DNA of 17,045 bases from a virus. Its lineage: Duplodnaviria; Heunggongvirae; Uroviricota; Caudoviricetes. Below, in pieces: positions 1 through 8,862 of this stretch (positions within the stretch are counted from its first letter, which is position 1; every line of letters begins with the position of its first letter). Below the pieces are notes generated by a model that had not been told where the DNA came from, did no database searches, and was given only the letters and a program-made list of their open reading frames with translations. A program made the position numbers and the translations under genes. Where the stretch lies: IMG/VR virus record IMGVR_UViG_2654588181_000007; one strand, given 5' to 3'.

Positions 1-750
1 TCAGTCAATTGTTTTGTTTATTCCATCTGTGACGCCGATTATTTTCTCAAAATAATGAGATGGCGTGACACCATAATAATCTTTAAATGCACATATGAAA
101 TATGAAGTACTGTTATAGCCACATTTCTGGGCTACGACATTGATAGAATAAGAGTTTGAAGTTATGAGTTTTTTTGCATACCTCATCCTAGTATCTCTCA
201 ATATTTCAGTAAATGACGTTCCTTCATCCCTTAATCTTTTTTTTATTAAACTTTCACTCGTATAAATCAATTCCGCAATATCTTTTAAATGCCATTGCCG
301 CTCAATATTAAAACTGATTATTCCAGTAATTTTACAGGTAAATGTATTTATATTTGTTAGTATAAAAGAATTTACACTTTCGCGTTTTTTGAACATGGCA
401 AGTAAGGATATACATAGTCTTTCTTTTAACCAAAGGGAGTGTGAGTCTGCTATTTTAATCCCTTCAAACAGAGAAAAAACAAGCGATAATGGAGGTTCCT
501 CTTCAGCAATATAGCCATTCTTATCAAGAGTAAATTTGCCAGGCAGCTCATTATTCACGTCGATAAAAAAGGATAAACAAGTTTTCTTATCTATATCAAC
601 AATTCTTAGTTTAGAGGGGCATACTGGTAACTCCCTTCTAATTTTGTCGCTTACAATAAACAATGAATTTTTTTTGAACGAGATAACTCTCCTGTTTATA
701 ATTAAATCAAATGATTGACAGATGAAAACTACGGAGCAAACATAATCCAT
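1..750 (-). CDS. appY: AraC-family transcriptional activator AppY (249 aa, complete)
   Basis: Full-length ORF, ATG at 748-750 and TGA at 1-3. C-terminal AraC-type helix-turn-helix. The translation matches my memory of E. coli AppY; AT-rich upstream region 751-1290. Confidence 0.9.
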
Positions 751-1293
751 CTTGCACCTATCATAAAATTAAAACAAGTTGATAGCAGTCAAATAACAAC
801 CAATTAAATACACAATCATAATCAGGATGATGTGCATTTATATTTTTATACACAAAATTATAGTTTGCAAATTTTAATAAATTTCATTTAAGATTAAATT
901 ATTATATGTATATTGTTTTTTATTCTAACGTATTTCAAAGTTACATTTTTCAACGCTTACTATACTTTTTATTAACATAAACTCACTACAACGCACCTGA
1001 AACCTCTTGCTATATATATGTCAACCGTTTGAATTTAAAATAAAAAGAGTATCATTTTTACTTGCATTTCTTATCAAGTCACATTCAACAACAGTAAAAA
1101 AACATTATTAGAACCATTCAATTAACAAAAAAACCAACATCCAGCTTGCTTAATTTTTCTTTATTAAACGATATTGAAAATCAATTGATAAAATACATCT
1201 AAACAACCTTTTGGGGCGCAAAAGCATAACATCAAACAAATAACACACCGAAAAAACTCACAATTAATAACCTATGATATACATACTGTTTAT

Positions 1294-1553
1294 TATGGTT
1301 GAATAAGCCACTCGATATCTGGTGCTACGGAAGTGTCCACACGGTTTAGCAGCACCCGATACTTTTTTCAGGCTTCCAGCAACGATCTTTCTTCCTCCGT
1401 TGCGATTTCCAGATCTACAGCATCCTGCAGTGGCGCAATATACTCACTGAATTCCTGGATGTAGAACTGTGTGGTGACGGTCTTCCAGCTATTCGGCTCC
1501 TGCTGTATTGAAGCATACCAGGCTATTTCAATATCGCTATGCTGCGGCAGCAT
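1294..1553 (-). pseudogene. tfaX: Tail-fibre assembly gene remnant: C-terminal fragment with an in-frame stop, homologous to the 3' third of tfaD
   Basis: The 61-aa ORF 1368-1553 ends ...[22 protein letters not shown], matching the TfaD C-terminal region. Past the stop the same frame still reads [17 protein letters not shown], so the W codon appears mutated to TGA. DNA at 1340-1449 is about 90% identical to 4111-4220. Confidence 0.75.
1340..1449. repeat. Direct repeat copy A (~110 bp, about 90% identical to 4111-4220): conserved 3' end of a tail-fibre assembly gene
   Basis: By-eye alignment: CACGGTTTAGCAGCACCCGATACTTTTTTCAGGCTTCCAGCAACGATCTTTCTTCCTCCGTTGCGATTTCCAGATCT... against 4111-4220. 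Confidence 0.7.
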
Positions 1554-1609
1554 TTAACCCCTTGTAATTCATTGCCATAATTGATTTAATTCACAAATAA
1601 AACTATAAC

Positions 1610-2278
1610 ATGGTGAAATTAATGAAAAAAAACACAGATGATGGGGCTAAAATTTACACACCACTTACCCTAAAGCTTTATGACTGGTGGGTTTTGGGAG
1701 TATCAAATCGGCTTGCATGGGGATGTCCTACAAAGGAACACCTTCTTCCACACTTTCTGGAACATTTAGGTAACAACCATCTGGATATTGGTGTTGGAAC
1801 TGGGTTTTACCTTACTCACGTACCTGAGAGTAGTCTGATATCTTTAATGGATTTGAACGAAGCTAGCCTGAACGCGGCATCTACAAGGGCTGGGGAATCA
1901 AAAATTAAACATAAAATTAACCATGATGTTTTTGAACCTTATCCCGCGGCGTTACATGGTCAATTTGATTCCATTTCCATGTTTTACCTTCTTCACTGCC
2001 TGCCTGGAAATATATCTACAAAAAGCTGTGTAATACGCAATGCGGCGCAGGCCTTAACTGACGATGGAACTCTATACGGAGCCACAATTCTTGGCGATGG
2101 AGTTGTGCACAATAGCTTCGGTCAAAAACTGATGCGCATTTACAATCAGAAAGGCATCTTTTCAAACACAAAAGATTCCGAAGAAGGCTTAACACATATA
2201 CTCTCAGAGCATTTCGAGAATGTTAAAACCAAGGTTCAAGGTACTGTAGTAATGTTTTCCGCTTCAGGGAAAAAATAG
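1610..2278 (+). CDS. ybcY: Class I SAM-dependent methyltransferase (222 aa); small-molecule/RNA/protein type rather than DNA MTase
   Basis: SAM-binding motif I LDIGVGTG, post-I acidic residue (LMDLNE) and motif II (FDSISMFYLL). No DPPY/NPPY or C5-MTase motifs. Position between tfaX and tfaD matches K-12 ybcY from memory. Alternative start at 1622 (MKKNTDD). Confidence 0.8.
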   Translation: MVKLMKKNTDDGAKIYTPLTLKLYDWWVLGVSNRLAWGCPTKEHLLPHFLEHLGNNHLDIGVGTGFYLTHVPESSLISLMDLNEASLNAASTRAGESKIKHKINHDVFEPYPAALHGQFDSISMFYLLHCLPGNISTKSCVIRNAAQALTDDGTLYGATILGDGVVHNSFGQKLMRIYNQKGIFSNTKDSEEGLTHILSEHFENVKTKVQGTVVMFSASGKK

Positions 2279-2643
2279 CATCCAACCGCAGCACGTTCTT
2301 GCATAAGGCGTGTCTGCGGTTTTTCAACTATTCAGATACATCACTCCCATCACATTCATTCCTCCGCATCATAGGCATATAGGCTATATCACCTTGATAT
2401 TTTTCTTCTTCAGATAAAAACTGTTATCTATGTATACTTTTAAACCCAATCCGTGTAGAGTCTCTGCATAAGATAGTTTGCAGTTGCCACTTCAGCTTGC
2501 GCCATAAACCGCCTGATTTTTGCTGCCACCTGTTAGCATTCCTGTATACCTGAAACGACAATGTTTATCTACGAACTTTAAGAACCCCCAGGATAAAAAT
2601 TGTCAACTATATCATATATAACACATTACTAATTCGAGGCTAT

Positions 2644-2757
2644 ATGAACAGCATACTGATAATCACTTCGCTCCTTATCATATTCAGCATTTTTAGTCAT
2701 GCGCTAATAAAATTAGGGATTGGCATATCCAATAACCCAGACAAAACCGATGTATAA
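2644..2757 (+). CDS. Hypothetical 37-aa hydrophobic peptide ([37 protein letters not shown]); below the ORF-track size cutoff
   Basis: ATG at 2644 with GAGG 4 nt upstream. The N-terminal ~25 residues form one predicted transmembrane helix followed by a polar tail. Lies in the 514-bp gap between ybcY and the next ORF. Confidence 0.3.
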
Positions 2758-2792
2758 GTCAACATATCCTGAATCAGACATACAATATCGCA

Positions 2793-3059
2793 ATGAAAAT
2801 CAATAATATTTTAAGGAATATCTTCATGAAATCAAAAGACACCCTAAAGTGGTTCCCTGCGCAGCTTCCTGAAGTAAGAATTATCCTAGGGGATGCTGTA
2901 GTGGAAGTAGCAAAACAGGGAAGACCTATCAATACCAGAACATTGCTTGATTACATTGAAGGAAACATAAAGAAAAAATCATGGCTGGATAACAAAGAAT
3001 TATTACAAACAGCGATATCAGTTCTTAAAGACAACCAAAATTTAAATGGTAAAATGTAA
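2793..3059 (+). CDS. Hypothetical protein (88 aa; more likely 77 aa from the ATG at 2826, which has AAGGA upstream), function unknown
   Basis: Clean ORF in an AT-rich stretch immediately upstream of the serine recombinase, same strand. No motif I can recognise. Confidence 0.45.
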   Translation: MKINNILRNIFMKSKDTLKWFPAQLPEVRIILGDAVVEVAKQGRPINTRTLLDYIEGNIKKKSWLDNKELLQTAISVLKDNQNLNGKM

Positions 3060-3375
3060 TATAATAAACTTACTTTTTTATCATTTTTCCACTTTAACAA
3101 CATTTTGCTCCACTTTTCCACGACCAAACAACTTGAAATCTGGTTAAAATAACACGCAACACTATTCTTCTTCCTTGAGTCCGCCCGGAACTCGAAAAAC
3201 AAACCGAGTTAAAGCCATTTTTCACAAAATCGATTTTGGGTCTCACCAAAATTACGGGGTTGCATACGCATTCGTTTATTTTCGAACGTGTACATACAAA
3301 TATGCACAAAAATAATCATAATTATTTTCTGAGATGCATTATGATATGAACACCAATTTCGTATAGAGTCTCACT

Positions 3376-3966
3376 ATGTCTCAAATTTTTGCTTACTGTC
3401 GGATATCAACGCTGGATCAGACCACCGAAAATCAACGCCGGGAAATCGAAAGTGCAGGTTTTAAAATCAAACCTCAGCAAATAATCGAAGAACACATTAG
3501 CGGCTCAGCAGCAACCAGTGAGCGTCCTGGTTTTAACCGGTTGCTTGCTCGCCTGAAATGTGGTGATCAATTGATTGTGACAAAACTGGATCGCCTTGGT
3601 TGTAATGCAATGGATATCAGGAAAACAGTGGAACAACTGACCGAAACAGGTATCAGAGTGCATTGCTTAGCATTGGGGGGCATTGACCTGACCAGTCCAA
3701 CAGGAAAAATGATGATGCAAGTAATTTCAGCAGTCGCTGAATTTGAACGAGACCTTTTACTTGAACGCACTCATTCCGAGATAGTAAGAGCCCGCGGCGC
3801 AGGGAAACGTTTTGGTCGACCACCTGTGTTAAATGAAGAACAGAAACAGGCGGTATTCGAACGAATTAAGTCAGGTGTAAGTATAAGTGCCATTGCCCGG
3901 GAATTCAAAACCTCGCGGCAAACCATTTTAAGAGCCAAAGCAAAACTTCAGACACCTGACATATAA
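3376..3966 (+). CDS. Small serine recombinase (resolvase/invertase family; Pin/Gin/Hin-like architecture, 196 aa)
   Basis: N-terminal catalytic motif YCRISTLDQ (nucleophile Ser in the R-x-S-T-x-x-Q context), conserved LDRLGCN block, C-terminal helix-turn-helix ([19 protein letters not shown]). Only moderately similar to Gin/Pin sequences as I recall them. Confidence 0.85.
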
Positions 3967-4063
3967 AAAATAATCTCGGTGTGAGATGCTTTACGTCTTC
4001 CAAGCCCCCTTCCTTGCCGTAAATGGAAAGATACATCTAATTATAGAATTTATATGTTTTACC

Positions 4064-4639
4064 CTACGGCAGTGCTGGCCATTCAATATCCTGTGCAGTT
4101 GACGTATCAACACGGTTCAGCAATACCCGATACTTTTTCCATGCTTCCAGCAACGAGATTTCTTCCTCCGTTGCAATTTCCAGATCTGCAGCATCCTGAA
4201 GCGGCGCAATATGCTCACTGGCTACCTGCATCAGGTTGTTTTTTGTTTCTTCCGCCTCCCGGATCCGGAACAGTTTTTCTGCTTCCGTATCCTTCACCCA
4301 GGCTGTGCCGTTCCACTTCTGAAACTCCCCTTCCGGCGATAACCAGGTAACATTTTTCGGTAACGGACCGAGTTCAGAAATAAATAACGCGTCGCCGGAA
4401 GCCACGTCATAAACCGTTTTACCCCGATGATCTTCAACGAGATGCCACGATGCCTCATCACTGTTGAAAACAGCCACAAAGCCAGCAGGAATATCTGGTG
4501 GTGCAATATCGGTACTGTTTGCTGGCAGACCTGTATGAGGCGGAATATATGCGTCACCTTCACCAATAAATTCATTAGTTCCGGCCAGCAGATTATAAAT
4601 TTTTATGGTCCGTGGTTGTTCACTCATTCTGAATGCCAT
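4064..4639 (-). CDS. tfaD: Tail-fibre assembly protein (Tfa family, 191 aa)
   Basis: Tfa-like sequence with the conserved C-terminal [16 protein letters not shown]...[12 protein letters not shown] block. Its ATG overlaps the stop of the upstream tail-fibre tip ORF (TAATG coupling). Confidence 0.85.
4111..4220. repeat. Direct repeat copy B (partner of 1340-1449), inside the tfaD 3' region
   Basis: Same alignment; same orientation as copy A, 2.77 kb apart, bracketing ybcY, the two small ORFs and the serine recombinase. Confidence 0.7.
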
Positions 4640-4914
4640 TATGCAAGCCTCACAATATAGTTAAATGCGATGTTTTTGACGGTGTTTTCCGCGTTACCAG
4701 CAGCGTTAACGGTGATGGTGTGTCCATGTGAACCAATCGCAACGGAGTGCGTATGAGCACCAATACCGACAGTATGCGCGTGTGCACCTGCAGATGCTGC
4801 TGTGCCGGACAGTGAATGGCTATGATTACCATCTGTACTGGTATTCGCTAACCACCCCGTAGACATACCTACTGAGCCTTGTACACCCGTTGTTAACTTA
4901 TCCATGGATTTCAT
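4639..4914 (-). CDS. Side-tail-fibre C-terminal tip remnant (His-rich HxH repeats); 91 aa from an internal ATG at 4914
   Basis: Repeats [24 protein letters not shown] resemble receptor-binding-tip His motifs. The ORF-track start at 4959 is TTG and the in-frame upstream sequence is not tail-fibre-like. The ATG at 4914 has GAGGTG 7 nt upstream. Confidence 0.6.
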
Positions 4915-5039
4915 AACCCCACCTCGCAGACAAAGCGGGTGTAAATTGAGGGAATACAACGTATCGCAAAAAAGCAGAAACGTAACAGACTCGGAGTCAG
5001 TGAATAACTCAGGTATTGGGTTATCAGCTAATATCGAGA

Positions 5040-5076
5040 CTCAAAAAATGGAAAAACCCGCTCGACGGCGGGTTTA
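5040..5076 (-). terminator. Candidate rho-independent terminator on the minus strand (stem AAACCCGC / GCGGGTTT, then a T-run on the minus strand)
   Basis: Read directly: 8-bp perfect stem at 5054-5061 / 5068-5075; the minus strand continues TTCCATTTTTTGA. Confidence 0.45.
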
Positions 5077-5503
5077 AGCTGTGTGACGAAGTAACCACTC
5101 TTAACAGCATAACCAATTTTTTACGTACGTAAACCACAAAATGATATTTGCGAGAATGCTACCGAGTATTGAAAACACCACTACAAATACATAAGCAAAT
5201 CTCAACAAATAACCAACAAATAATTTCCAGTGTTATTTTTAGCCGATTTAAATTGAACCTTCAAATTACAGAGCACTTATAAATAACAGCCGTTAATATA
5301 AATTGGCTAATAGATTTATTTTTATTCAGCCAAGATCCATGAATAGGATTCGATAGAAAAAAGTTCAGATAAAAATAGAGATCTACTTCACAAATCAAAC
5401 GAGAAACCAAAACTTACATCTTGAAATAATCACATTGATTAGATGAATATTTATCGCGCAGTGACATCATTTTTTAATAATAGTTCAAAAAAAAGGGCTC
5501 ACG

Positions 5504-6586
5504 ATGAAAAAATTAACAGTGGCAATTTCTGCTGTAGCTGCATCAGTACTGATGGCGATGTCTGCTCAGGCAGCTGAAATTTATAATAAAGACAGTAACA
5601 AGCTGGATCTATATGGGAAAGTTAATGCCAAGCACTACTTCTCCTCTAATGATGCAGATGATGGTGATACTACTTATGCCCGTCTTGGCTTCAAAGGTGA
5701 AACCCAAATCAACGATCAACTGACTGGTTTCGGTCAGTGGGAATATGAATTCAAAGGCAACCGCGCTGAATCTCAAGGCTCCTCCAAAGACAAAACCCGT
5801 CTTGCATTTGCAGGCCTGAAATTCGGGGACTACGGCTCAATCGATTACGGCCGTAACTACGGTGTAGCATATGACATCGGTGCGTGGACTGACGTTCTGC
5901 CAGAATTCGGTGGCGATACCTGGACCCAAACAGATGTGTTCATGACTGGTCGCACCACTGGTGTTGCAACTTATCGTAACAACGACTTCTTTGGTCTGGT
6001 TGATGGTCTGAACTTTGCTGCTCAGTATCAGGGTAAAAATGACCGCACTGACGTAACTGAAGCTAATGGTGATGGTTTCGGTTTCTCCACTACTTATGAG
6101 TATGAAGGATTCGGTGTAGGTGCAACCTATGCTAAATCTGACCGCACTAATAATCAGGTTATCTACGGTAACAACAGCCTGAATGCATCTGGTCAAAATG
6201 CTGAAGTATGGGCAGCTGGTCTGAAATATGATGCGAACAACATCTATCTGGCTACCACCTATTCTGAAACCCAGAACATGACTGTTTTTGGTAATAACCA
6301 TATTGCCAACAAAGCACAAAACTTCGAAGTAGTTGCACAATATCAGTTCGACTTCGGTCTGCGTCCGTCCGTTGCTTACCTGCAATCTAAAGGAAAAGAC
6401 TTGGGTGCGTGGGGTGATCAGGACCTGGTTGAATATATTGATGTAGGTGCAACCTATTACTTCAACAAAAATATGTCCACTTTTGTTGATTACAAAATCA
6501 ACCTGATTGATAAGAGCGATTTCACGAAAGCATCTGGCGTTGCTACCGATGATATCGTTGCTGTAGGTATGGTTTACCAGTTCTAA
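5504..6586 (+). CDS. nmpC: Outer-membrane general porin, OmpC/OmpF/PhoE family (prophage NmpC/OmpD-like), 360 aa, apparently intact
   Basis: Signal peptide [23 protein letters not shown] followed by AEIYNKD; typical porin N-terminus, beta-barrel repeats and C-terminal ...VYQF. Uninterrupted ORF. Confidence 0.9.
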
Positions 6587-6601
6587 TTTGATTACTAAAA
6601 G

Positions 6602-6635
6602 ATATGTTGCGGGAGGCTTTGCCTCCCCAACATAT
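6602..6635 (-). terminator. Long imperfect hairpin 16 nt past the porin stop; on the minus strand it is followed by CTTTT (possible tR'-like terminator or RNA-stability element)
   Basis: Stem ATATGTTG-(C)-GGGAGGC / GCCTCCC-CAACATAT with a TTT loop, read directly. Confidence 0.35.
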
Positions 6636-6722
6636 AAGTGGCTCCCTCAAGCCACTTCCTTTAGGAGCACAACCTTGCTTCTAACTATATAAACCTTCTG
6701 TTATATATTACCCTTTATTTTT

Positions 6723-6748
6723 GGGGGCGTTGCAACGCCCCATTTTTA
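6723..6748 (+). terminator. Rho-independent terminator candidate (18-nt GC-rich palindrome GGGGCGTTGCAACGCCCC followed by ATTTTT) downstream of the porin
   Basis: Perfect palindrome at 6724-6741 followed by a T-tract at 6743-6747 on the plus strand. Confidence 0.55.
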
Positions 6749-6774
6749 ATAATTTTTAGTAAACAATTGGCATA

Positions 6775-7158
6775 TTAATTAGAGTTATTAACAACGATAT
6801 CCATCTCTAACCGGATATCTAATGCCATTAACATCCCTTCAATTATGCCCTCAGCCTTCTGTAACCTTTTCCCGATATAACCATCAGAGCAGCAATGCTT
6901 ACCTGCCAGTGACATGAATGTCATACCGACTACATAATAATCTACTAATAAATCGTGCAAATCGCTGTTGTTCTTTTTCAGACGGGCCATGCACCCGCAA
7001 ATAATCATCGCGTCATCGTCACAACATTGCGGGCGAGATTTTACTTTTGAAGTAATTAATCCCTTAAAACCGGCGGCAATGGACGACCAGGTCACATCTT
7101 CATGATTATTAGCCGCCCACGCTCCCCAACGCTCAAGAACCATCTGAATATCACGCAT
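6775..7158 (-). CDS. quuD: Lambdoid late-gene antiterminator Q homologue (127 aa from ATG at 7156-7158)
   Basis: Translation from [24 protein letters not shown] matches my memory of K-12 QuuD/YbcQ; Cys-rich zinc-binding region ([12 protein letters not shown]). The ORF-track start at 7173 is TTG. Confidence 0.85.
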
Positions 7159-7243
7159 CAACTTACTCCACAAAAATCAGACCAGAACGCCAATTACAAG
7201 CAAAAATCAACAAAACAGTATTAGTTGATTGTTATCTCTGACT

Positions 7244-7384
7244 TCATACTCCTGCTCCTGTCAGGGTTTTGGCGTAATTCTTCAGTATTCGGTAATCGGT
7301 CAAAACAGAACCGGGGAAACGATATAAGCGCAGATGCCCCCAGCGGTGGCGAAGAAGTTCTGCCATATAAAACTCAAACATCAT
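7244..7384 (-). CDS. ylcG: Small nin-region protein YlcG-like (46 aa: [46 protein letters not shown])
   Basis: Found by manual translation between rusA and quuD. Its ATG overlaps the rusA stop (ATGA), typical nin-region coupling. Confidence 0.55.
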
Positions 7385-7743
7385 TCATTCCCCATTTCGG
7401 TGATGGTCAGTTCCAGCCTCCCACCTTTGGTAACAGGCATCTTCACAACGCGGTAATCAACGACCTGAGCATCATCCAGCCAGAAACCTGCTTTGGTGAG
7501 TGCGTCAAAAGCGGCTTTTTGCAGATTATCCAGGTCACGGCGACGGCGATCCGGCATGTGGCACTCAATGCGGATTTTCACAGGCATAGCCAGGCCGATA
7601 TCCAGCATTGCGTTTTTAATGATTCGGGCGACGTTATCGCGGTATGCCTGCCCCTCTGCACTGACGTGCGTGCGCCCGCGATTATGGCGGTAATAGCGAT
7701 TATTGCTCGGAGGCCAGGGTAATGTGATACTGTAGGTATTCAC
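7381..7743 (-). CDS. rusA: Holliday-junction resolvase RusA (120 aa)
   Basis: Translation [18 protein letters not shown]... with the catalytic acidic cluster (DRRRRDLDN); matches RusA as I know it. Confidence 0.95.
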
Positions 7744-7793
7744 GCCTTAATAACCCCCTCTTTCAGCCAGATAACCTGTGTTCTCGCCATACC

Positions 7794-8030
7794 TTACAGC
7801 GCGCATTCTTTTGCATATGCAGCATCGACAAAATGTGTGCGGCGGTCGATTTCGTCGTGGCAGGCAGAACATGCAATGGTGGCAATCAGGTCTGGCGGTT
7901 TGATACCGGTACCGCACAATCCAGCCAGCCGGATATGTGCCAGTACAGACGTTTCAGAATTGCCATTACATACGCCAGGGATTCTTACCTGGCATTCCCG
8001 ACCACGCGCTGCTTTTCTCAAATCAGCCAT
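7794..8030 (-). CDS. ybcO: nin-region Cys-rich protein YbcO-like (DUF1364-type putative nuclease); likely start is the ATG at 8028-8030
   Basis: Cys-rich (CQVRIPGVCNG...CSACHDEID). The ORF-track start at 8069 is TTG; the ATG at 8030 has AAGGAGG 6 nt upstream and overlaps the ninE stop. Confidence 0.7.
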   Translation of the reverse strand: MADLRKAARGRECQVRIPGVCNGNSETSVLAHIRLAGLCGTGIKPPDLIATIACSACHDEIDRRTHFVDAAYAKECAL

Positions 8031-8193
8031 GATTCCTCCTTGCTGCCAGTCGCAACCATTTTTTATCAACCAGGCTAGCGGTATATCCGAGCAGTGTTGG
8101 TATTTCGGATGGCTTCAGCTCAGGCTTACGCTTACGACGATTTGATACTCTGTAGATGTGTCCGTTCATGACACGGATAAGCGGTGTAGCCAT
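8023..8193 (-). CDS. ninE: NinE-family small basic protein (56 aa)
   Basis: Manual translation [32 protein letters not shown]...WLRLAARRNHG; basic composition and pattern resemble lambda NinE. Start overlaps the ybcN stop (TAATG). Confidence 0.6.
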   Translation of the reverse strand: MATPLIRVMNGHIYRVSNRRKRKPELKPSEIPTLLGYTASLVDKKWLRLAARRNHG

Positions 8194-8648
8194 TACGCCT
8201 CCTGCTTGTCGCGGAGCAGCTGGAACTCGCAGCTCTGCGGAATAGTCAGGTGGCAGCCAATATTCACCGCCCAGGCTTCAACCTTACACAGGAAGACATA
8301 CATCTCTCCGGTATCAAGATCGGAGGTATGGCGTAACGACTGGATAGTGGTGATATCACCGGTTACGACATCAACCAGGTCTTTGGTTTCATAACCGAGA
8401 TATGTGTGTTTGAGAGCATCTTTTACCCAAGCTGGAGTGGCGAACGTTTTACCCCTGCTGATGAGGTATTCACTGATTTCGCTGTACCACATGTGGCTGA
8501 GTGCATTCTGGGAAAGACTGCGTTTCTCACGCCACGGTTTAAGCACCATGCGAAAGCATTTGCCCTCCTCCAGATAAGGCTGGATCTGCCGACCGATAGC
8601 GGTGAAGTTGCCGCGATGTAATTTGATGCCGTCTTGTGAGAGGTTCAC
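8193..8648 (-). CDS. ybcN: NinB/Orf-family recombination-associated protein (151 aa), GTG start
   Basis: Position in the nin region and similarity to lambda NinB (RSLSQN motif). GTG start overlaps the ylcH stop. Confidence 0.75.
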
Positions 8649-8746
8649 GCTTCACCTCCGCAGAGGTCAAACGCTAGATGCAAAGAATTGCAGGTGCATT
8701 TCTGCATCTGTGAAGGGAGAAGAGAGTTTGGATTGTATGTGCGCAT
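8645..8746 (-). CDS. ylcH: Small nin-region ORF (33 aa: [33 protein letters not shown])
   Basis: Manual translation; stop overlaps the ybcN GTG start (GTGA). Matches the K-12 ylcH position from memory. Confidence 0.45.
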
Positions 8747-8862
8747 AAACGTCCCCGTTTAGCGCAGAAGTCACCGGAGTTGTTCAGGCTCCGGTGACAT
8801 AATTATGCCGTGTTGATTTCCCAAAATCAAAATCGATAGAATTGCTCCTTCTTAAAACACTT

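Follow-up and report, generated by a model that had tools for sequence, protein, structure and literature searches.

An apparently orphan PinQ/PinR-type serine recombinase beside tail fibre genes at the end of a DLP12-type prophage

Small serine recombinases that adjoin tail fibre genes are known from the Mu G/Gin, P1 C/Cin and e14 P/PinE systems. In all three a recombinase with a Resolvase and an HTH_7 domain (HTH, helix-turn-helix) lies next to a tail fibre gene and a tail fibre assembly gene (tfa). In e14, stfP-tfaP converges with tfaE-stfE, which is followed by pinE. In P1, the crossover site cixL is located at the 3' end of cin, Sv'-U' converges with U-S, and the second site, cixR, lies inside S. 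Here we analyse a comparable locus in a 17,045-nucleotide sequence of Caudoviricetes (IMG/VR record IMGVR_UViG_2654588181_000007), the whole of which is called the window in the following. Between its positions 1294 and 4959 a Pin-like small serine recombinase gene (3376-3966) stands beside a tfa gene and the tip of a fibre gene. An earlier interpretation made from the sequence alone (here the sequence-only reading) had suspected a host-range inversion switch of unfamiliar geometry. Its gene identification was confirmed by domain matches (Resolvase and HTH_7 for the recombinase, Caudo_TAP for tfa) and by homology of the fibre tip, a stub at 4639-4888, to the side tail fibre gene stf.

The closest described recombinases are PinQ and PinR of E. 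coli K-12. According to Kirigo et al. (Nucleic Acids Res 2025, PMC12529663), PinQ and the 99% identical PinR act at the pix repeats of e14 and flip its 1797-bp P segment; the resulting chimeric StfE2 prevents adsorption of T2. In that work the e14 inversion was present in both sequenced survivor colonies, and T2 infection was reported to induce the wild-type recombinases, which are active. The authors call it remarkable that PinQ leaves the DNA adjoining its own gene uninverted (PMC12529663).

The region was identified as the far end (b region) of a lambdoid prophage of DLP12 type from which structural and lysis genes have been lost. The locus is already known, namely as the Rac/Qin PinQ/PinR cassette within a DLP12 end. 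Our reading, to which we assign a probability of about 0.85, is that the recombinase is an orphan of the PinQ/PinR type that serves no local switch and possibly acts in trans, while the direct repeats around it are passive. By analogy with the published work on PinQ and PinR it would most likely be an invertase at best; its targets, if it is active at all, would be inverted sites of the Gin/Cin/Pin type at other places in the genome. Of the options raised by the sequence-only reading, the most fitting is that the recombinase does not control fibre choice but something else, as PinQ and PinR, which differ from it by 1-3 residues, invert e14 P elsewhere (PMC12529663). The locus is a well-represented variant in which two textbook prophage ends of K-12 are combined and for which the recombinase function in trans is already published.

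The assignment to DLP12 is based on gene order and on nucleotide identity. The window spans exactly the interval from appY to intD; the tRNA gene is absent from it. The nearest complete genome was that of E. coli PSS-07, with a printed identity of 100.0% over window positions 1000-5500, in which the prophage is annotated as a defective one of DLP12 type with intD beside a tRNA-Arg gene. The order in PSS-07 is appY, a tfa pseudogene, a methyltransferase gene, ynaM, ydfK, the recombinase gene, tfa, the fibre stub, an ompC/nmpC porin gene and quuD, continued by rusA, ybcM, ybcL, ybcK, emrE, ren and intD. Within positions 1-7905 the two sequences differ by 2 single-nucleotide polymorphisms, followed by an indel near 7906. 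From about 7906 the window retains a K-12-like ybcN-ninE-ybcO stretch (99% identical to K-12) that is partly lost in PSS-07. These differences show that the window did not come from PSS-07.

The K-12 prophage DLP12 itself shares the order from quuD to appY (the tfaD-ybcY-tfaX-appY-ompT end), the same stopped tfaX and the direct repeat between tfaD and tfaX, and the diagnostic DLP12 order intD-quuD-nmpC-tfa-ybcY-tfaX-appY is that of the window. In blastn alignments the identity to K-12 DLP12 was 99.05% over 1-2319 and about 99% over 6545-11114, and positions 4077-4493 matched tfaD at 93.8%. The K-12 copy differs in that it lacks exactly positions 2320-4076, i.e. a 1.76-kb cassette with ynaM, ydfK and pin. 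In addition it has a ybcY pseudogene and an nmpC interrupted by the insertion sequence IS5, and it has kept the lysis genes and nohD, which are deleted in the window.

Window positions 2270-4835 were found to be collinear with the left end of Qin (98.6%) and the right end of Rac (98.9%; both blastn). The Qin end consists of ynfT-ydfK-pinQ convergent with tfaQ-stfQ and the Rac end of ynaM-ynaE-pinR convergent with tfaR-stfR, such that genes, order and strands are the same, as is the spacing (591-nucleotide pin, 97-nucleotide spacer, 576-nucleotide tfa). The module lies directly at the prophage end in Rac and Qin, whereas the window has about 2.3 kb of extra cargo beyond it (ybcY, the tfaX remnant and appY). 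The window furthermore differs by an stf that is reduced to about 250 nucleotides and by a recombinase that carries the substitution G135E. The impression of the sequence-only reading that the arrangement resembles nothing known therefore did not hold: it is base for base the Rac/Qin layout, set into the tfaD-ybcY-tfaX-appY end of DLP12, and it recurs in 316 genomes and in viable phages (see below).

The unit ynaM-ydfK-pin behaves as a discrete mosaic cassette of 1.76 kb that extends from the terminator hairpin behind ybcY to the tfa stop codon. In K-12 the gap ends on the right about 10 nucleotides inside the tfa 3' end. The K-12 "empty site" holds 14 unrelated nucleotides, and the C-terminus of Tfa reads TNPVRE versus ALP. 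Since this site is not clean, the cassette is a mosaic module rather than a cleanly excising element, and the idea of a self-mobilising cassette was dropped for the same reason. The region is composed of separate modules, comprising old DLP12 cargo (appY, the tfaX pseudogene, ybcY), the terminator hairpin, the cassette, which is the one found at the K-12 Rac and Qin ends, and finally the convergent tfa with the stf stub.

Viable phages carry the same arrangement. Phage Kati (PP925833, deposited as a complete genome) matched window positions 1-4888 at 99.76% and has ompT, appY, the tfaX remnant, ybcY, ynaM, ydfK, pin and tfa in common with it, but continues with a full 3.4-kb stf followed by lom and J, compared to which the window is a deletion derivative. 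The match to Kati identifies the layout as that of the b region of a viable lambdoid phage. Cassette and tfa are also present in PhiR68_2, mEp460, 2H10 and Turner, and strain S10 has the same end on a full prophage. The deletion junction of the window is located at 4883-4888: the match to the full-length stf of Kati and S10 extends up to 4888, and the match to K-12 DLP12 sets in at 4883, at a point inside essD and upstream of nmpC. The overlapping ends indicate a single deletion with a few bases of overlap that removed everything from the stf body through the lysis genes. Lysis, packaging, head and tail genes were lost with it.

To see how often the arrangement occurs in E. coli, we surveyed complete genomes. 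The junction of ybcY, hairpin and ynaM was present in 316 of 5426 (about 6%), and 312 of these 316 were collinear from ybcY to tfa. A sample of 60 rows across the ranking fell into five classes: full DLP12-type ends, Rac/Qin-type ends, the cassette with a tfa remnant, K-12-type ends without the cassette, and truncations. An inverted class was not among the 60 sampled rows.

We then scanned for Din-type 26-bp crossover sites using the pattern TTNTCNNAAACCNNGGTTTNNGANAA. As a control, the scan recovered pixL and pixR of e14 at 1 mismatch, and the cix sites of P1 fit the pattern by eye. The window contained no match at up to 3 mismatches. At up to 4 mismatches none was found in the window, the Rac end, the Qin end, S10, Kati and Tritos, full stf genes included, and matches at 5 mismatches occurred at the chance level of about 1.9. 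An oppositely oriented alternative stf'-tfa' cassette was absent as well: the window holds one tfa and, on the far side of pin, tfaX in direct orientation. A search for inverted repeats in the window, S10 and Rac returned short matches only (at most 24 nucleotides, 74-81% over most pairs). One inverted pair, 1015-1036/3944-3965 (22 nucleotides, 77%), would bracket everything from tfaX through pin and was discarded, as no orientation variant supports it.

The window thus differs from Mu G, P1 C and e14 P in having neither 26-bp sites nor an alternative cassette nor an orientation polymorphism. The lack of all three next to the recombinase argues against a local host-range switch, and it removes the basis for the proposal that the locus is a rearranged or collapsed shufflon. 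The statement that the geometry is not that of Mu G, P1 C or e14 P stands as far as the overall organisation is concerned. The convergence of recombinase and tfa, which had been counted as part of the anomaly, is shared with P1, where the invertase gene cin is convergent with the expressed S-U operon, and is therefore not anomalous on its own. A serine recombinase beside tail fibre genes, if taken as the signature of a host-range switch, is likely to give false positives of this common kind in E. coli and Shigella.

At the protein level the recombinase is identical to K-12 PinQ in 195 and to PinR in 193 of 196 residues. The Pfam matches to Resolvase (E 2.6e-35) and HTH_7 (E 2e-11) correspond to an N-terminal catalytic domain and a C-terminal helix-turn-helix. 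The best solved relative was Gin (E 2.3e-28), with residues 4-185 aligned including the catalytic-serine motif YxRxST. When compared with Din invertases and with resolvases, as had been suggested, it scored moderately higher against Gin (102 bits) than against gamma-delta resolvase (80 bits). Yet its identity is 38% to PinE and 36% to Cin, while PinE and Cin share 82%, which on sequence grounds places it outside the closely related, mutually complementing Din (Gin/Cin/Pin) clade. The annotation shows no transposase gene within 1294-4959 or next to it; res-site architecture was not searched for. A homologue of 82% identity is carried by a 192-kb, tsh-bearing plasmid of ColV type (NZ_CP146668.1, positions 9059-9649 of the extracted locus), where it is surrounded by fragments of insertion sequences. 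Neither tail fibre genes nor an invertible segment were found near it, which indicates that the PinQ clade is not tied to fibre genes. As a guide to the cognate site of this clade the plasmid locus was uninformative, because it offers insertion sequence fragments and no invertible segment.

At window position 3779, in codon 135 of the recombinase, an A replaces a G and converts glycine to glutamate. Gly135 is aligned with a glycine in both Gin and gamma-delta resolvase and is retained in PinQ, PinR, Kati, Tritos, S10, PSS-07 and the plasmid homologue. The exact G135E protein is recorded from 2 contigs, both labelled Shigella sonnei, compared to hundreds of records of the wild-type sequence. 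Judged by this conservation, the substitution may weaken or abolish the activity of the window copy. The gene could in this case be an inactive relic, i.e. a functionless passenger that is disabled by G135E and kept only for as long as decay has not reached the prophage end. Besides the conservation of the glycine in Gin, the resolvase and all PinQ/PinR-type copies compared, and the rarity of the allele, such a relic would agree with the heavy deletion of the prophage, with the failure of the Din-type scan to find a local substrate and with the absence of e14 from icd in PSS-07. On the other hand, the open reading frame is intact, the residue aligned with the catalytic serine of Gin and the rest of the protein are unchanged, wild-type PinQ and PinR are reported to be active and induced by T2, and the disabling effect is deduced from conservation. 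We regard a relic as possible but doubtful.

Several points weigh against our own reading of an orphan recombinase with a possible role in trans. The survey covered assembled genomes, each of which displays one orientation, such that low-frequency switching within a culture would be invisible to it. With only 36-38% identity to the Din invertases, the native site of the recombinase could differ from the scanned pattern, and the lack of Din-type sites is therefore compatible with an unrecognised local site. The trans-acting role is carried over from K-12 work of one laboratory. In PSS-07 icd is directly beside iraM and e14 is missing there, such that the sole reported substrate is perhaps absent from the source strain. 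Together with G135E, whose effect is gauged from conservation only, this means that the gene may be idle or impaired in this strain.

One may also ask whether the locus descends from a fibre switch of the P1 type. Its ancestor would have had pin followed by a site, an stf'-tfa' cassette convergent with tfa-stf, and a second site within stf, with cassette and sites lost later. In P1 cin is convergent with S-U, Sv'-U' is placed in between, and the 3' end of cin carries cixL; once the Sv'-U' cassette is taken away, exactly the convergent pin-tfa geometry of the window results. However, the 97-nucleotide spacer between pin and tfa contains no inverted remnant of tfa' or stf', the full stf genes of Rac, S10 and Kati contain no relic of a site, the tfaX remnant lies on the wrong side of pin and in direct orientation, and the recombinase falls outside the Cin/Pin clade. 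Such an origin is improbable, and as it concerns ancestry alone it would leave the verdict on the present-day locus unaffected.

The direct repeats that flank the cassette are the 3' ends of tfaX and tfa. The sequence-only reading had recognised them at 1340-1449 and 4111-4220, which lie inside the 154-nucleotide copies that we delimited (Table 1). Both copies have the same orientation, and the blastn match (E about 2e-39) points to true homology of tfa 3' ends rather than chance. The tfaX copy belongs to a short Tfa-like gene with one in-frame stop and is not a random fragment: it matched the 88-position profile of PHROG 2341 with E 1.4e-41, and its 61-residue open reading frame (1368-1553, minus strand) is identical to K-12 TfaX in 60 of 61 residues and matched Caudo_TAP (E 7e-7). 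The stop replaces a tryptophan at a position where Tfa carries tryptophan, and the same in-frame stop is present in K-12. The longest exact run common to both copies is 16 nucleotides, so that they are ill suited to homologous recombination.

Nonetheless, deletions between these diverged repeats recur in nature. With a synthetic deletion product as query against complete genomes we found 9 in which the appY flank is directly joined to a single full-length chimeric tfa, followed by stf. Aligning 4 of these 9 site by site revealed at least 3 crossover patterns from tfaX-like to tfaD-like sequence: the switch occurred near 1334 in SFE8 and near 1428-1442 in EM18-18-42, and was patchy in the two others. 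The tfa of EM18-18-42 has inherited the in-frame stop of tfaX and is annotated as a pseudogene. Variable crossovers and patchiness point to homologous recombination with mismatch correction, and for the 4 aligned genomes the variable crossover points speak against both a site-specific deletion between the repeats and an ancestral single-copy state. The prediction that the segment is prone to deletion through its direct repeats was hence borne out; of the inverted or deleted isolates that had been proposed as a check, deleted ones exist and inverted ones did not appear in the sampled rows. In our reading the repeats are not recombinase sites but diverged tfa 3' ends that stem from fibre-module exchange and that occasionally recombine homologously, removing everything between them.

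Tritos and HannyBb have the cassette and only the last ~110 nucleotides of the window-type tfa, followed by different fibre genes. In Tritos this remnant (7465-7576 of the extracted locus) lies between pin and the other fibre genes and ends at the equivalent of window position 4175; remnants with the same end point occur in many genomes, including those of E. coli C type. Fibre modules would seem to be exchanged with the conserved tfa 3' block as the junction.

A live local switch would have to rely on crossover sites that differ from the Gin, Cin, Hin and Pin ones and would invert or excise part of 1300-5000, either the ynaM-ydfK-pin cassette or everything between the tfa repeats. The position of the recombinase outside the Din clade, which renders its cognate site uncertain, would allow for this, as would the behaviour of the cassette as a discrete presence/absence unit that is missing precisely from K-12 DLP12 and always adjoins a tfa 3' end, even where only the short remnant is left (Tritos, E. 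coli C). Such a switch is nevertheless very improbable: no flanking repeat pair exceeds chance, inverted repeats being short and imperfect, nearly all junction-bearing genomes are collinear, the unclean K-12 site is typical of mosaic module exchange, the variable deletion crossovers reflect homologous rather than site-specific recombination, and the PinQ study found inversion of e14 but not of the adjoining DNA (PMC12529663). To the idea that PinQ-type recombinases have an unrecognised target of their own in the conserved tfa 3' block, which adjoins pin in every context seen, we give the least credence of all, although it would, if true, mean that fibre modules are exchanged or deleted between prophages of the same cell with the help of these recombinases, the tfaX/tfaD repeats being substrates instead of passive scars.

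The features of the region are collected in Table 1.

Table 1. Features of the prophage end, with positions in the window
Feature	Position	Strand	Details
appY, AraC-family activator, cargo at the far end of the DLP12-type prophage	1-750	-	Pfam HTH_18/HTH_AraC; annotation in PSS-07 and K-12
tfaX pseudogene, short Tfa-like gene, ~86 codons	1293-1553	-	in-frame stop after codon 61
Direct repeat copy 1, tfaX 3' end	1307-1460		154 nucleotides
ybcY-type class I S-adenosylmethionine-dependent methyltransferase, intact, 222 amino acids	1610-2278	+	Pfam Methyltransf_12/23/25/11; PHROG 2132, E 2.7e-156
Hairpin with U-tract, intrinsic-terminator-like, directly 3' of ybcY	2284-2326	+	minimum free energy -20.7 kcal/mol, z -5.67
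ynaM/ynfT-family small open reading frame, 37 amino acids	2644-2757	+	NCBIfam NF041477, E 1.2e-17, above the curated cutoff
ydfK/ynaE, 77 amino acids, annotated "cold shock protein YdfK"	2826-3059	+	77/77 to K-12 YdfK, 76/77 to YnaE
PinQ/PinR-type small serine recombinase with G135E	3376-3966	+	196 amino acids; Pfam Resolvase and HTH_7
tfa, tail fibre assembly, TfaQ/TfaR type, intact, 191 amino acids	4064-4639	-	Caudo_TAP, E 6.8e-43
Direct repeat copy 2, tfa 3' end	4078-4231		154 nucleotides, 82% identical to copy 1
3' stub of side tail fibre gene stf, ~83 codons, ~250 nucleotides	4639-4888	-	homology to full stf; Phage_fiber repeat

The segment between the repeats had been described as carrying a methyltransferase gene and two small unknown open reading frames. 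All three genes are present; the two small ones belong to the named K-12 families YnaM/YnfT and YdfK/YnaE. The methyltransferase gene ybcY is intact in the window and annotated as a pseudogene in K-12. When the cassette proteins were screened for defence functions with the PADLOC models, the methyltransferase gave a weak match to mad2 only (E 6.8e-4). The hairpin behind ybcY is the left boundary of the module common to Rac, Qin and Tritos, whose homology starts at 2270-2282. A consensus terminator scan missed it because of its long loop, and folding confirmed the hairpin.

The product of tfa is identical to TfaQ in 189 and to TfaR in 188 of 191 residues, and the 97 nucleotides that separate it from the convergent recombinase gene are non-coding. 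Genuine stf sequence is limited to the stub, at whose end the match to the full stf of S10 and Kati breaks off; the 106-residue fibre open reading frame that reaches 4959 continues past this point into unrelated DNA. The 3' half of tfa (4098-4296, minus strand) matched the full 199-nucleotide Rfam model RF02111 "IS009" with 220.9 bits (gathering score 117). This family seems to stand for a prophage coding sequence that occurs repeatedly, and not for an independent RNA gene.

Outside the region the prophage carries a second, unrelated recombinase, a 508-residue open reading frame at 10686-12212 (minus strand) in the position of ybcK; the gene at this position is annotated as "recombinase family protein" in PSS-07 and K-12. 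The nmpC/ompC-type porin gene (5504-6586, plus strand, 360 amino acids) is intact in the window, while the copy in K-12 DLP12 is interrupted by IS5.

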